DNA of 64,000 bases from Verrucomicrobiia bacterium (GTDB lineage Bacteria; Verrucomicrobiota; Verrucomicrobiia; Limisphaerales; UBA1319): NCBI GenBank assembly GCA_963664225.1, contig OY760937.1, forward strand, positions 992,001 through 1,056,000, read 5' to 3'. Shown here one piece after another: positions 1,471 through 6,832 of the stretch (position 1 is the stretch's first letter; every line of letters begins with the position of its first letter). The notes below the pieces were generated by a model. The model was not told the origin of the DNA and did not search any database. It saw only the letters and a list, made by a program, of their open reading frames with translations. The translations under genes were made by a program, and so were the position numbers.

Positions 1471-1617
1471 GATAATTTGGGATCACCCAAAGGCCACGCT
1501 AAGGGAATCCGGCAAAAGCGTCAAAGATTTTACAACGAATGAAATATGATGATGAGGAGGTGGGACAAAATGGCGCGTTGACGCATTTCATGCCGATTTT
1601 CCCATTCCTCGGGAGGC

Positions 1618-4600
1618 CTATGGACTGCTTTTGGGGTCCGGCGCCCGCGTGCGGGGTTTGGCTGCGCGATGAATTCGCAGCGAGAAGCCGTGCCCGTTTT
1701 CGTAGGGTTCCACGGTTGCGCTGACCTCAAGCACGGGGTAACGCACGGTGACCAGGCCGTAGCTGCGGTAGGTGGGGGCGAACAATTCCGTTTCCACCAT
1801 CCCGGTCCAATCGGTGAGGGTGAGGAATTTCATCGGTTCCCCGGTGATCTGGTGGTGGAGACGCTGTTCAATGACCAGGCCGCATACGACGACCGTCTCG
1901 CCGGGATAGTTTCCCAGCCGTGAGATGGGACAATAGGTTTCCCAGGCCACGGTGTCATAGATTTCCAGGGGATGGCCGGAAACGGTGAACCCCAGCAGGT
2001 CAGTTTCCCATTCGAGTTTTTCGTGGTGTCCCGGTTCCTGGAGTGGCACGGGAAAAAGTGTCTTTTCATTGTGTGGTTCGGGGAAAAGCCAGCCCTGGCC
2101 GGGTTCTGTGCCTGCCTCAAAAAACCTGCGCAACCGTTGGAACTCCCAGAATTGTGCCGTCCGGGTATCTCCAAAGAGATCAAAGGCGCCCACGCGAATG
2201 AGCGCATCCATTTCCTCGACCAGGGGTTGGACACGCTTGTAGAAGTCCCGCAGGGACGTGAACGGGGTGTGATGCCGCTCATTCAGCAATCGTTCAATCG
2301 TCCGGTTGGTCAGTCCCTTCACGCGGGTGACGGGAACGCGGATCGCCTGTTTTTTGGTTTCCGGATTGGTGGTGCAGACCTGAAACATGGGTCCCGGCTC
2401 ATTGACGAATGGCGGCAGGAGAGGGATGCCCAGTCGGTGGCATTCCAGGACATACACCAGCGGATGGTAAAAACCCTTCCCGTTGGAAAGGACGGCGGCC
2501 ATGAATTCGGCGGGGTAATTTTGTTTGATCCAGGCCGACTGCCAGGCTTCCACACCGTAGGCCACGCTGTGCGCCTTGCAGAAGGCATAACCGGCGAACC
2601 CGGCCACTGATTTCCAGACTTCCTCGATGGCGCTTTCCGGACGACCAAGGCGGCGGGCGGAAACGAAAAATTCTCCTTTGATCTGCTCCATCACGGGCAG
2701 GTTGTATTTGGCCAGCGCGCGGCGGAGAACATCGGCGCGTCCCGGAGGCAATCCGGCAAAGGCCTCGCAGATCTGTAAAATGTGCTCCTCATAAACCACC
2801 AGTCCGTAGGTGTCTTTGAGACAGGGTTCCAATGAGGGGTGGGGATAGGTTACGGGTTCCCGGCCTTGATAGCGGCGGACGAAGTTGAGTTTGTTATTTT
2901 CATTGGCCGCGCCGGGCCGGATCACGCTGACGATGGCGACCAGGCCATCGATTTCATGCACGTTGGATTGGCGGCACAGCCCAATCATGGCCGGGCTTTC
3001 GATGTGATGCACGGCGCGCGCGCCGCCGCTGGCGATCAGTTTCCACACTTGTGGATCAGTCCACGGCTCGAGCTGGTCGAGGTGCAGTTCAATGCCGCGC
3101 GCGGAAAGCATTTCGCGGACATCCCGCATCACGGCCAGTCCGCCTTGGGCAAGAATATCCATTTTGATCAGTCCGATCGCTTCCACGGCATCCATGTCGA
3201 AATGGGTGGTCGGATACCCCTTATTGGAAGGAAACGTCGGCGTGAGTTCGCACATGGGCTGACGGGAGAGAACCACACCGCAGGGGTGCATTTTGGGATG
3301 GCGCGGAAAGCCGTCGAGGAACTCCGCCATGCGCAGGGCGGAGCGGTAGGGTTCCTCGGTCAGCGGGGCATCCTGGCACTCCAGGCTTTGCGTCACGGCA
3401 TTCTCGATGCCCTGCACGCGTCCGAACCAGGGGAAGTGTTCCGTGAAGCGGCGGATTTGGAATTCAGACACGCCAAGCACTTTTCCGACATCCGCCACGG
3501 CGCTGCGGGCTTGAAACGTGGAAAAGCCTCCAACGACCGCAGCATGAGAAGGCCCGTATCTCTTGAAGATCAGGTCAATGACATCGTCTTTGCGGTCATG
3601 CGGAAAATCCAGGTCGATATCGGGCAATTTGTTCAACTGCATCCGTTCCCGGTTGAGGAAACGCCGGAAGTAGAGGTTGAAGCGGATCGGGCAGACCCCG
3701 CTGATTTCCAGGCAATAACAGACCAAAGAATCGGCGGCGCTGCCGCGGGTGATCCACTCGATATTCTGCCGACGGCACTCCTGCAAAAGATCCCAGACGG
3801 CGAGGAAATAGGGTTCGTAGCCGACTTCGGCAATGAGGGCCAGTTCCTCCTCGACCTGGGGCTGGACCTGCGCGAAGCGGCTGGGGTAGCGGCGGCGCAG
3901 ACCCTCCAGGGCAATGCGCCGCAGAAACGCGCGGGCCGACGAGCCGTCCGGCGGCGTGAAATCCGGGAATTGCGGTTTGCCCAGCGGCATTTCAAACGAG
4001 CAGCGTTGCGCGATTTCCCGCGTCTGGTCCAGCAGTCGGGGCTGATTGCCAAAAAGGGCGCGCCATTGCGCCGGGGAATGAAAATGAAAATCTCCAGTCA
4101 ATTGTTTGCCGGGATGTTCCTGGCGCAAAAGGGTGCGCGTGCGGATGCTTTGGACAACATCGTATTTCCAACGGTCTTCCGGTGTCGCGTAATGGATGGG
4201 GACCATGGCGATTTGCGGAATCCCGGTTTGCGGGGCGGGCAGGGAACGGCCGTATGGGGGGGGAACGGCCTGATAGAAACGACCCGGAAAAAGCGGGGCG
4301 AGTTTGAGGTTCGAACTTGCGGCCAGGAGCCCGTTGGTGATGCCATCCAGATCGGTCATGGCGCGCGGACGTTGCTGGCGTTGAATGACGGCGTCGCCAT
4401 CGTCCTCCACGGACTGCGGAATGGCAGAGAGAATCTGGCACAGGTTGCGATAACCTTCCGGGTTTTGCACGTAGAGGCACACGGGCGCGCCATCGACAAT
4501 GATCTCGGAACCGATGATGGGTTGGATCCCGGCTTTTTTGGCGGCGGCATGGAATGAAACCGCCCCGTGGAGGTTGCCCGTGTCGGTGATGGCAATCGCT

Positions 4601-5964
4601 GGCATTTCATGTTTTTGGGCCAGTTCGACAATGGCCCCCACGGACAGCGTGGAGTTTAAAAAGGAATAAAAACTGCGAGCCCGCAGGGGCACGGGTATGG
4701 TGTTTAGACCGGTGCGGATGAGAATTTGGAGACCCGGGGTCGGGGTTTCTTTTGGCGGCAGACGCGAAGCCAGCGTCCGGGTTTGGGCCGGATTCAATCC
4801 AGGGCGCAGAATCAGATCGTGGCCGCGCATCACAATTTCCTGGCAATGTGATTCGCGGCGCAGGGTGTCGATGGCAGCCGCCAGCCGCCGCTGGGCGTCG
4901 AGCTTTTGCGCGGAGCGGTCGAGGCAAAGTTCAATGCGAAAAACACCGTCATACACATTGGAAAACCGCAGACAAACCATGCGCAGGCTGACGCGGCGTT
5001 TCCAGGCCTGGCGGAGCAGGGGAGGAATCCGGCTGTAAAGATCCGTTTCCAGGTCCGTGGGTTCGGGCAGGCTCTCGCCGGACTGGTCTTCGGACATGTC
5101 GTTGTAACGGACTTTGACGGTAACCGTGCGAATGCTTTTGCCCTCGGCGCGAACCGTTGCCATGAGCTGGTCGGCCATGCGTCGCAGGATGGCTTGAATG
5201 TATTCCTCGTCGGTGGTGTCGGCGGAGAAGGTTTCCTGTTTGCTGTAGGACTTGGCCGGGGCGCGGACGGGAATGATGGGCCGCTCGTCCAGGCCGTTGG
5301 CGTATTGATGGAGGGTGTGGGCCGCGCCGTCCATGAGCAGTTCCAGGGCGTCGATCGGGGTGGCGGCGATCTGTCCGATGCGGGTCAAGCCGGCCGCATT
5401 GAGGCGAAGGGCGGTTTTGGGACCCACGCCCGGAAGCCAGTGATTGGCCAGGGGTTGCAGGAATGATTTTTCGCAGCCGGGAAGAACGGAGGTAAACGCA
5501 GCGGGCTTGTTGAGTTTGGAGGCGATCTGGCTGACCAGTTTATTGGAGGCAATGCCTTCGCTGACGGTGATCTTCAGGGATTGCCGGATGGCCTGCCGGA
5601 TGGTTTCGGCGACATCGACCGGCGGTTTGCGTCCGCCACTCAAATCAAAATAGCCCTCGTCAATCGAGCAAATCTCGACGTCGGGGGTGAAGTCGTAGGC
5701 GTAACTGAACATCCAGCGGGAGAACTGCTCGTATTTCTCGAAATCGCCCGGCAGGACGATGAGTTTGGGACAGAGCTTGCGGGCGCGCACCGTGGGCATG
5801 GGAGTGTAAACACCCATCTTCCGCGCTTCATACGAGGCGGAGGCGATGATCCCCCGCTTCTCGCCACCCACCGCCACCGCCTTGCCCCGCAGCCTGGGAT
5901 CGGAGGCTTGCTCGACCGAGGCGAAAAACGCATCGGCATCCAGATGGATGATGTCGCGGGGCAT
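1618..5964 (-). CDS. Fused DNA polymerase: N-terminal Y-family Pol IV/DinB (aa ~1-385) plus C-terminal DnaE (Pol III alpha, DnaE2-like; aa ~425-1448)
   Basis: DinB motifs HLDADAFFASVEQ, SYEARKMGV, SIDEGYFD. DnaE motifs AITDTGNLHGA (PHP), RGSAADSLVCYCL, PDIDLDF, HPCGVV, KMDILA, YAFCKAHS and a C-terminal OB fold. One uninterrupted frame with a Pro-rich linker. Confidence 0.93.
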   Translation of the reverse strand: MPRDIIHLDADAFFASVEQASDPRLRGKAVAVGGEKRGIIASASYEARKMGVYTPMPTVRARKLCPKLIVLPGDFEKYEQFSRWMFSYAYDFTPDVEICSIDEGYFDLSGGRKPPVDVAETIRQAIRQSLKITVSEGIASNKLVSQIASKLNKPAAFTSVLPGCEKSFLQPLANHWLPGVGPKTALRLNAAGLTRIGQIAATPIDALELLMDGAAHTLHQYANGLDERPIIPVRAPAKSYSKQETFSADTTDEEYIQAILRRMADQLMATVRAEGKSIRTVTVKVRYNDMSEDQSGESLPEPTDLETDLYSRIPPLLRQAWKRRVSLRMVCLRFSNVYDGVFRIELCLDRSAQKLDAQRRLAAAIDTLRRESHCQEIVMRGHDLILRPGLNPAQTRTLASRLPPKETPTPGLQILIRTGLNTIPVPLRARSFYSFLNSTLSVGAIVELAQKHEMPAIAITDTGNLHGAVSFHAAAKKAGIQPIIGSEIIVDGAPVCLYVQNPEGYRNLCQILSAIPQSVEDDGDAVIQRQQRPRAMTDLDGITNGLLAASSNLKLAPLFPGRFYQAVPPPYGRSLPAPQTGIPQIAMVPIHYATPEDRWKYDVVQSIRTRTLLRQEHPGKQLTGDFHFHSPAQWRALFGNQPRLLDQTREIAQRCSFEMPLGKPQFPDFTPPDGSSARAFLRRIALEGLRRRYPSRFAQVQPQVEEELALIAEVGYEPYFLAVWDLLQECRRQNIEWITRGSAADSLVCYCLEISGVCPIRFNLYFRRFLNRERMQLNKLPDIDLDFPHDRKDDVIDLIFKRYGPSHAAVVGGFSTFQARSAVADVGKVLGVSEFQIRRFTEHFPWFGRVQGIENAVTQSLECQDAPLTEEPYRSALRMAEFLDGFPRHPKMHPCGVVLSRQPMCELTPTFPSNKGYPTTHFDMDAVEAIGLIKMDILAQGGLAVMRDVREMLSARGIELHLDQLEPWTDPQVWKLIASGGARAVHHIESPAMIGLCRQSNVHEIDGLVAIVSVIRPGAANENNKLNFVRRYQGREPVTYPHPSLEPCLKDTYGLVVYEEHILQICEAFAGLPPGRADVLRRALAKYNLPVMEQIKGEFFVSARRLGRPESAIEEVWKSVAGFAGYAFCKAHSVAYGVEAWQSAWIKQNYPAEFMAAVLSNGKGFYHPLVYVLECHRLGIPLLPPFVNEPGPMFQVCTTNPETKKQAIRVPVTRVKGLTNRTIERLLNERHHTPFTSLRDFYKRVQPLVEEMDALIRVGAFDLFGDTRTAQFWEFQRLRRFFEAGTEPGQGWLFPEPHNEKTLFPVPLQEPGHHEKLEWETDLLGFTVSGHPLEIYDTVAWETYCPISRLGNYPGETVVVCGLVIEQRLHHQITGEPMKFLTLTDWTGMVETELFAPTYRSYGLVTVRYPVLEVSATVEPYENGHGFSLRIHRAAKPRTRAPDPKSSP

Positions 5965-6015
5965 GACTGGGAATTGGAGTGCGCTCGTACAAGACGCTGC
6001 CTGGAATAAGGCGGA

Positions 6016-6636
6016 TTATTTTCGCTTGCGGACCAACGCGATCATCACACCCTGAATGACCAGTTCGCCGACGGGAAAGAGCTTGGGAAAAAGCGGGTTT
6101 TCCGCCCTGAGAAACGGACGTCCATTCTCGATGGCAAAAGTTTTCAGCGTGCTTTCGTTATCGATCAGCGCGGCCACCACATCGCCCGGGCGGGGGGTGA
6201 CCCCGTGTTCGAGAACCACCAGGTCGCCATCCATGATATGACGGCCGATCATCGATTCGCCCCGGACTTCCAGGGCGAAGGTGCGCGCCGTGGGTTTGAT
6301 CCCCAGACTTTCGACATCAATGGACACGCAGCCCGCCGGTTCCTGGCGGCGGTCGGCGGCAAACCCCGCCGGGATGGTGCCATACAGGGGAATGTCGGCA
6401 ATGGGACGGCGCAGGCGTTGGAGCGGAGAGGTGGAGCGCAGGGAACGGGCCTGGCGCGGTTGACCTTCGAGAAAGCCTTTGCGGCGCAGCGCGCGGACAT
6501 GGTCGGCGGCTGCAGTCATGCTGCGAAATCTGAAATGCTCCGCAATCTCCCGCAGCGAGGGCGGGACGCCCTGGGCTTGCTGGCTGGACACAATGAAGTC
6601 CAGCACTTGCTGCTGTCGGCTGGTTAAATCACGCAT
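6016..6636 (-). CDS. lexA: SOS repressor LexA
   Basis: LTSRQQQVLDFI...PPSLREIA wHTH, cleavage site IPAG, catalytic Ser (GESM) and Lys (TLK). ATG at 6636 chosen as the likely start. Confidence 0.96.
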   Translation of the reverse strand: MRDLTSRQQQVLDFIVSSQQAQGVPPSLREIAEHFRFRSMTAAADHVRALRRKGFLEGQPRQARSLRSTSPLQRLRRPIADIPLYGTIPAGFAADRRQEPAGCVSIDVESLGIKPTARTFALEVRGESMIGRHIMDGDLVVLEHGVTPRPGDVVAALIDNESTLKTFAIENGRPFLRAENPLFPKLFPVGELVIQGVMIALVRKRK

Positions 6637-6657
6637 AACACACGGTTTTTGAAACAC

Positions 6658-6671
6658 TGTTCAAATAAACA
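6658..6671. promoter_or_regulatory. Putative LexA operator (SOS box) upstream of lexA
   Basis: TGTTC-AAAT-AAACA inside the near-palindrome ACTGTTCAAATAAACAGT (6656-6673), about 20 bp upstream of the lexA ATG. It has one mismatch to the TGTTC-N4-GAACA motif reported for Verrucomicrobia. Confidence 0.8.
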
Positions 6672-6805
6672 GTATTCCTTTGCCCCTGCCCGTCAACTCA
6701 CAAACAGGGAAAAAACGAAAAGTCGTGTTCTGGGATTCTATAAGCCATCCGGTTAACTTCAGAAGTGATTGGATTGCAGGCGGTCTCGCGATCGTAACGA
6801 AAAAC

Positions 6806-6832
6806 AAAAAAAGCGCCCTTTTCGGGGGCGCT
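6806..6832 (-). terminator. Rho-independent terminator of the CTN-repeat peptide gene
   Basis: The minus strand reads AGCGCCCCCGAAAAGGGCGCT followed by TTTTTTGTTTTT. Confidence 0.85.

Follow-up and report, generated by a model that had tools for sequence, protein, structure and literature searches.

A natural fusion of a Y-family and a DnaE2-like DNA polymerase encoded behind lexA in a member of the Verrucomicrobiia

Can a Y-family and a DnaE-type DNA polymerase, which are separate proteins in the related mutasomes, work from a single polypeptide, and is such a protein made under the control of LexA? This question is raised by a locus in a stretch of 64,000 nucleotides from a member of the Verrucomicrobiia (Limisphaerales, UBA1319; contig OY760937.1 of assembly GCA_963664225.1, positions 992,001 to 1,056,000), which is called the window in what follows. 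The source genome is a single closed contig of 5.78 Mb. With a probability of about 0.7, we read the locus as a LexA-repressed operon consisting of lexA and one polymerase gene, the product of which is a natural covalent fusion and is proposed to act as an inserter-extender recruited by RecA and the clamp.

The polymerase gene occupies positions 1618..5964 of the window on the reverse strand and is one open frame of 1448 codons, which corresponds to a protein of roughly 160 kDa. Its product is built up as follows.

4945..5964, reverse strand: Y-family polymerase core and little finger (residues 1-340), with D9, D11, D102, E103, F13 and F14
4807..4896, reverse strand: motif resembling the N-terminus of RecA (residues 357-386), RRLAAAIDTLRRESHCQEIVMRGHDLIL
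4693..4806, reverse strand: variable linker rich in Pro, Arg and Thr (residues 387-424)
1618..4692, reverse strand: DnaE2-like C-family polymerase (residues 425-1448 and the stop codon)
3607..3624, reverse strand: PDIDLD, with the catalytic residues Asp 782 and Asp 784 and with D786, invariant in 42 fused proteins
3151..3165, reverse strand: KMDIL, with the third catalytic residue Asp 936, invariant in the same 42 proteins
2083..2097, reverse strand: QGWLF, a pentapeptide resembling a clamp-binding motif, between the HhH domain and the OB fold (from translation and alignment)

Pfam assigns the N-terminal part of the protein to IMS (8-150) and IMS_C (238-337), and the remainder to PHP (427-549), DNA_pol3_alpha (680-939), the finger domain (943-1104) and HHH_6 (1179-1269). 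A first-pass annotation had described the frame as an active-looking DinB joined to an active-looking DnaE; what it said of the frame, the motifs, the spacing to lexA and the palindrome at the lexA promoter could each be located in the DNA. The Y-family motifs HLDAD and SIDE lie at residues 7-11 and 100-103, and the C-family motifs PDIDLD and KMDIL at residues 781-786 and 934-938. In a set of 42 fused proteins, 63-92% identical to the query over the whole length, D9, D11, F13, F14, D102 and E103 of the Y-family half are invariant, as are D782, D784, D786 and D936 of the C-family half. By analogy with DinB and Dpo4, D9, D11, D102 and E103 are taken as the catalytic residues of the Y-family half, and the aromatic F13 and F14 would supply its steric gate. 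Furthermore, the Y-family half is matched by PF00817 (E 5.8e-45) and PF11799 (E 6.6e-19), narrowly passes the Pol IV equivalog model NF002677 of NCBIfam (257.7 bits, cut-off 256) but none of the remaining Pol IV models, and has DNA polymerase IV, PDB 7yll, as its best match among solved structures (E 2e-58). Both polymerase halves thus look catalytically intact.

The fusion does not seem to be peculiar to one assembly. Contigs from runs X1 and X3, which belong to two studies and are possibly the source of this DNA, span positions 4300-6700 with 0 differences or gaps; the stretch 4690-4810 around the linker, for which the first-pass annotation had proposed a look at sequence coverage, lies within them. 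A contig from run X5 spans 4501-4794 and reaches into the linker, likewise with 0 differences. In a homologue search with residues 1-420 as the query and proteins of 796-2534 residues as targets, 1367 matches were obtained among 8000 candidates scored; the best 120 of these 1367, which are 65-96% identical to the query, all carry both the IMS and the DNA_pol3_alpha domain of Pfam. A search of species-representative genomes gave 26 related loci, 23 of which include the Y-family part. Seventeen of the 23 have one unbroken frame of at least 1400 residues, while the remainder are truncated by contig ends (three), broken in frame (two, L062 and L069) or consist of a Y-family gene alone (one, L053). 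In an even sample of the class, close matches (E up to 1e-100) were found in 55 of 401 genomes, 57 matches in all; 38 of the 57 belong to open frames of 1300 residues or more, from 37 genomes. In a sample spread over the phylum, such long fused frames occur in 4 of 401 genomes. Conservation is strong along the entire fused protein in the 42 sequences.

The first-pass annotation had named a splitting of the two genes in all relatives as the outcome that would speak for a lost stop codon. Some relatives do have two genes, or the Y-family gene alone, but full-length homologues occur in many genomes of the Verrucomicrobiota, and on the tree described below the split forms look either older than the fusion or like later breaks of it. 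On these comparisons the Y-family/DnaE fusion is natural and conserved and does not stem from a lost stop. In automatic annotation such proteins are called "DNA polymerase III subunit alpha" and similar names. A fused Y-family/DnaE protein is not described in what literature searches returned, nor was one met in term searches of the main texts of PMC6511836, PMC12926913 and PMC3919608; in the main text of PMC12926913 the word "fusion" is not used, and "fused" is used twice, both times in an unrelated sense. Two copies of the fused gene or its Y-family part are present in G582 (contigs C41 and C31), in G548 (C1 and C6) and in one metagenome-assembled genome (L059 and L060), and these may equally be true paralogues or the result of mixed bins.

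To which class does the C-family half belong? Its modules are a degenerate PHP domain, palm, thumb, fingers, HhH domain and OB fold. The chain stops shortly beyond the OB fold, and since the match to solved Pol III alpha ends near residue 1090 of 1220, the C-terminal, tau-binding domain is absent. At the place where the HxH of the PHP domain is expected, residues 427-431 read LRARS, and the first His is missing in all 24 aligned fused sequences, in keeping with the replacement that had been noted earlier. A second DnaE is encoded elsewhere in the genome, in a frame of 1215 residues with an intact HxH (HLHLH), and it groups with DnaE1 on the tree. The NCBIfam models did not classify the fused half: the query and 19 of 20 relatives, among them stand-alone relatives of about 1000 residues, fall below the cut-offs for both DnaE1 and the error-prone polymerase, and only one DnaE1 of 1200 residues passes. 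Therefore, a tree was used, obtained by a quick maximum-likelihood search (53 rows, 1013 columns, LG+G4). Four DnaE1 rows are split from the other 49 with a support of 100 in the SH-like approximate likelihood ratio test (SH-aLRT), and the 49 include three plasmid DnaE2 genes that adjoin imuA and imuB. By this placement the C-family half is DnaE2-like and non-replicative.

The same tree bears on the history of the fusion. The fused proteins form a clade of 27 rows with a support of 100, and the rows that branch closest outside it are stand-alone proteins of about 1000 residues, including one (from G004) whose gene lies beside a separate Y-family gene; the clusters to which the nearest stand-alone relatives belong are almost nameless. 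Three unfused rows (G005, P0125 and P0127) are nested within the fused clade, and in G005 two frames overlap in the linker, as would result from a single frameshift. Judged from the tree, the fusion arose in a clade in whose outer members the Y-family gene and dnaE2 are still two neighbouring genes. The simplest history would thus be that neighbouring polY and dnaE2 genes were fused once and that the fusion was followed by occasional breaks or by loss of the DnaE part. Within one genus, L078 has the Y-family and DnaE genes separate and about 570 nt apart and L077 has the Y-family gene only. Relatives of the Y-family half (52-69% identical) are found in L053, L079 and L080 with no DnaE within 3-5 kb downstream, and in L081 a Y-family gene stands alone before the contig ends about 0.9 kb further on. 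Some of the stand-alone Y-family relatives are still located behind lexA.

Between the two halves lie a conserved motif and the linker. Behind the little finger, the 42 sequences share the consensus RRRLAxAVDELRxxxGxxVILRGHDFxLR, in which L368, R369, R380, G381, H382, D383 and L386 are invariant; in the window protein, residues 361-381 read LAAAIDTLRR...IVMRG. The motif is similar to the N-terminal end of RecA from the same genome, DLESAIASITKTYGEGSIMRLGD, so that the RecA-N-terminal-like (RecA-NT) motif recognized in the first-pass annotation is real. A complex was predicted for residues 53-340 of RecA with residues 338-395 of the fusion, and scored 0.44, as against 0.04 for the best of three controls; at least 59% of contacts are shared between the runs, and the partner has a predicted local distance difference test (pLDDT) of at least 46. 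In the calibration, 116 of 157 solved complexes and 2 of 215 mismatched pairs attained the score mark, and those that did so with scores of 0.60 or under comprised only 18 of the 157 solved complexes and both passing mismatches. The model faintly suggests that the motif might bind RecA. The linker proper begins directly behind the motif. As claimed, it is about 40 residues long and rich in Pro (8 Pro in 40, counted on the translation around residues 387-424), and in the 24 aligned relatives it has no conserved columns and varies in length from about 20 to more than 100 residues.

Docking to the clamp may fall to the other half. QGWLF is present at residues 1290-1294, before the OB fold as the first-pass annotation had it, and at least 90% of the 42 sequences retain Q1290, as they do L1293. 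In E. coli alpha, the internal clamp motif lies at the corresponding place, between the HhH domain and the OB fold. As the clamp motif belongs to the DnaE half and the RecA-like motif to the Y-family half, each would supply a docking site that its partner lacks.

Is the gene controlled by LexA? The elements upstream of the polymerase gene are these.

6016..6636, reverse strand: lexA, encoding a LexA DNA-binding domain and an S24 peptidase domain; its translation contains GESM and TLK
6655..6674, no strand assigned: SOS-box-like palindrome of 20 bp, TACTGTTTATTTGAACAGTG, a putative LexA operator that overlaps the -10 element and lies 18 nt before the lexA ATG
6691..6696, reverse strand: putative -35 element TTGACG, separated by a 16-nt spacer from a weak -10 element, TACTGT
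6812..6832, reverse strand: terminator-like stem-loop of 7 pairs, 6 of them G-C, followed by a T-run, TTTTTTGTTT

The LexA protein passes the equivalog model TIGR00498 with 141.9 bits (cut-off 110.95), and Pfam agrees. The ATG at 6636 is the likely start of lexA rather than the GTG at 6657, because relatives begin with MRxLTSRQ. The gene ends at 6016 and is separated from the polymerase gene by 51 nt (5965-6015), the spacing that had been counted before. Upstream, the terminator-like stem-loop appears to close the preceding gene and to insulate the lexA promoter; downstream, the polymerase gene is followed by secA after a gap of 147 nt. Because of these two boundaries, the unit comprises lexA and one polymerase gene, in agreement with the two-gene cassette of the first-pass annotation. 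The G+C content is 0.57-0.63 over the operon (window 1501-6500) and 0.52-0.56 in both flanks.

The palindrome (6674-6655) is the sole match in the window to TACYRT-N8-AYRGTA with at most one mismatch, and its left arm, TACTGT, doubles as the weak -10 element. The latter had been missed by a promoter consensus scan because only three of its six positions match TATAAT. The lexA promoters of relatives have a similar layout, with TTGACA, 16-17 nt and then TACTAT or TACTGT. Of 25 fused or related loci, 19 have lexA upstream in the same orientation, and in 11 of these 19 the pattern, at the same tolerance, occurs within -220..+40 of the lexA start; from the background in the same loci (3 matches in 160,802 positions) about 0.1 would be expected. 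The putative operator is of the type CTGT-N8-ACAG, and the SOS-box-like palindrome claimed for the lexA promoter lies over the -10 element. Taken together, the operon is probably under SOS control, as predicted from this arrangement.

A stricter motif, TGTTC-N4-GAACA, is reported to be that of LexA in Verrucomicrobia. It was found in only 3 of the 25 related loci and was dropped in favour of the pattern derived from the alignments. Outside the window, an exact CTGTTCAAGTAAACAG occurs at 879735-879750 of the genome contig (G000:C1), directly before an ORF (open reading frame) of 306 residues and about 700 nt after a frame that was taken by eye, from its letters and not from a family scan, for an integrase; a mobile element may thus carry another site of the LexA type. 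In a related locus (L040, 1560-2818, from G342), a frame of 262 residues, in which MCGR is found close to the start, immediately precedes lexA and overlaps with it. It is presumably an SOS-response-associated peptidase. The LexA of this locus matches just residues 69-210 of the LexA in the window, and a palindrome TGTTCTAAAGAACA is present at 2341.

The first-pass annotation had further stated that imuA and imuB are lacking, and profile searches of the complete genome agree. The imuA model NF033429 matches RecA only (49.4 bits, cut-off 150), and for the C-terminal domain of ImuB (ImuB-C; PF20114, DUF6504), which was checked as a marker of ImuB C-termini, the best match in the genome has 18.6 bits and is interrupted by stop codons. 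There are just two IMS genes, the fusion and a stand-alone dinB, and no third Y-family gene. What, then, is the fusion to be compared with? Its parts are most reminiscent of the DnaE2B-PolY-RecA type of Bacteroidetes, for example Cellulophaga algicola. According to the main texts of PMC6511836 and PMC12926913, genomes devoid of imuA and imuB contain operons of an active Y-family polymerase (PolY) bearing RecA-NT and an active DnaE2, often together with lexA, and RecA is the proposed third partner in a complex that is predicted (PMC12926913). In that type the polymerases are separate and their complex is a prediction only, whereas here they are one polypeptide. We read the fusion as a putative covalent form of this predicted mutasome type, whichever class of the DnaE2A/B/X scheme its DnaE half may belong to.

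The ImuA-ImuB-DnaE2 (ImuC) mutasome of Proteobacteria and Actinobacteria is a LexA-controlled combination of a Y-family member and a DnaE2-type polymerase, as the present system probably is. In the model of the survey authors, contact with the PHP domain of DnaE2 is made by ImuB-C, the domain behind the RecA-NT motif (main texts of PMC12926913 and PMC6511836). The order of modules in ImuB (core, clamp motif, RecA-NT, PHP-contacting element) matches the core, RecA-NT, linker and PHP of the fusion. On the other hand, the fusion is covalent, its Y-family part is intact, the genome searches gave neither ImuA nor ImuB-C, and the SRDF tail is absent. E. coli Pol V (UmuD'2C-RecA-ATP), like the fusion as we read it, combines a Y-family polymerase with a RecA-NT-like motif, a clamp motif and control by LexA (main text of PMC12926913), but has no C-family partner and carries UmuD' subunits, which are not part of the present cassette. 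An unfused analogue is found on the Desulfosarcina ovata plasmid NZ_AP021877.1, with lexA, DUF72, PolY and DnaE in one direction, the Y-family protein (IMS/IMS_C) having 376 residues and the DnaE-like protein 1033. The latter is, at 32% identity, the best match to the DnaE half among those listed in a spread over the plasmid collection. This operon differs in its separate genes, in the extra DUF72 gene and in the position of its DnaE on the tree, within another group of short DnaE-like proteins. The plasmid (L070, 56609-66572) is mobilizable, so that this analogue might be carried from host to host.

Several observations weigh against the reading given at the outset. The DnaE half fails the NCBIfam model for the error-prone polymerase, NF004225 (540.9 bits, cut-off 939), and scores higher with the DnaE1 model (655 bits), yet under its cut-off of 1002; moreover, the tree that places it comes from a quick LG+G4 search, is rooted on one E. 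coli sequence and has few references. The C-family half has no DnaE2-typical SRDF[H/R] tail. As had been noticed before, SRDF is absent from its C-terminus, which ends in ...RAAKPRTRAPDPKSSP; a RAGKPR-like tail is present instead in all 24 aligned sequences. According to the main text of PMC3919608, the SRDF[H/R] C-terminal motif is carried by about 77% of DnaE2 proteins. Several of the 24 (for example L040, L041, L049 and L061) have a degenerate QGWLF or lack it, and in the Y-family half there is no clear QLxLxL clamp motif, just a conserved ELxL at 345-348. As for RecA, a complex prediction that passes at so weak a level is wrong in the majority of cases, unless the pairing was probable to begin with. 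Since close relatives of the Y-family half occur with no adjacent DnaE (L053, L077, L079 and L080), this half can presumably work alone. Finally, the palindrome was not found in 8 of the 19 related lexA loci, and no like box was seen upstream of recA (about 3390155-3390400 of G000:C1) or of the stand-alone dinB (about 2399384-2399700), for which reason there is no clear sign of a classical SOS regulon. Apart from the lexA box, the one strict ACTGT-N8-ACAGT site of the genome lies inside a coding ORF for a GTPase-like protein. Given these box-free genes and this position inside a coding region, LexA may control little beyond its own polymerase operon.

From some of these points alternative explanations can be built. 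The operon might not be inducible by damage at all, with the palindrome being a chance site or that of another factor and the enzyme a constitutive repair or gap-filling polymerase. Besides the missing boxes before recA and dinB, the 28 matches to the pattern at up to one mismatch in the whole genome and the 6 of 25 fused loci with no adjacent lexA agree with this. The box nevertheless overlaps the -10 element directly before lexA and recurs in the lexA loci far above the background, and the LexA concerned passes its equivalog cut-off and has visible motifs for the Ser and Lys of the cleavage site, which makes constitutive expression improbable. That the long frame is an artefact, through misassembly or loss of a stop codon, or that the gene is in decay in this genome, is scarcely credible: breaks in or near the linker are known from some relatives (G005/L036, L062 and L069), but the genome is closed in a single contig, the contigs of two studies, even if they are perhaps its source, agree with it over 4300-6700 at 0 differences, and the same unbroken, strongly conserved frame is found in 17 related loci and 37 sampled genomes.

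The other two explanations accept the gene and differ in what becomes of its product. In one of them, it would be a polyprotein, cut in the linker after translation into two polymerases that act like unfused PolY and DnaE2. An unconserved linker of variable length would suit this, as would the relatives that function with separate genes (L078 and G004); there is, however, no conserved cleavage motif in the linker and no protease gene in the operon, and there would be little need to preserve a single frame, as 37 of the 401 sampled genomes do, if the products came apart in any case, so that we give this only a small chance. In the other, just one half would synthesize DNA in vivo and its partner would be a scaffold for clamp or RecA, as catalytically dead ImuB is for DnaE2. 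The Y-family member of the known mutasome is purely structural (main text of PMC6511836), and in the fusion the sole well-conserved clamp motif is in one half and the RecA motif in the other. Scaffold-only homologues such as ImuB lose their catalytic residues, whereas all catalytic carboxylates of both halves, as well as F13 and F14, are invariant in the 42 sequences at 63-92% identity; a pure scaffold is on these grounds unlikely.

If the locus is the operon of a recruited inserter-extender, the following course of events could be imagined. Upon DNA damage RecA would be activated, LexA would cleave itself and the operon would be derepressed. The fusion would then be recruited to the stalled primer end through its RecA-like motif, by binding to the end of the RecA filament as has been proposed for UmuC and ImuB, while the clamp motif of the DnaE half would offer a second route. 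The Y-family site would insert opposite the lesion and the tethered DnaE2-like site would extend. As the RecA-NT motif is joined directly to PHP by the linker, the peptide linker may take over the role of the contact between ImuB-C and PHP in the ImuA-ImuB-DnaE2 mutasome. The division into insertion and extension, the hand-off within the molecule and the induction of the operon by damage are what we infer from the arrangement of the locus. The strongest version, a self-contained translesion machine in a single chain, with intramolecular hand-off of the primer, one docking event at the RecA filament and clamp, and a tether in place of the ImuB-C/PHP interface, is possible but rather doubtful.

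The unfused PolY-DnaE2 module is already known as a prediction, and the fusion is a new, covalent variant of this predicted mutasome type. The assembly of DnaE2-type mutasomes and the identity of their catalytic subunit are still argued, the known complex has been resistant to structural work, and the unfused modules have so far been predictions. A natural fusion is direct genetic evidence for two polymerases acting as one unit, in a fixed order and with a 1:1 stoichiometry. A single-chain protein could be purified and imaged with no need to reconstitute a complex, and mutants of single active sites in one polypeptide would show whether bypass needs one site or both. If the hand-off within a single chain is true, the fusion would be the counterpart, in bacteria and in covalent form, of the inserter-extender scheme of eukaryotes and a Rosetta-stone proof that a Y-family polymerase and DnaE2 form one physical unit, and ancestral mutasomes would have had two active polymerases before ImuB lost catalysis. 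For the Verrucomicrobiota, the fusion marks a large, little-studied part of the phylum as using a mutagenesis system that is not that of the textbooks.

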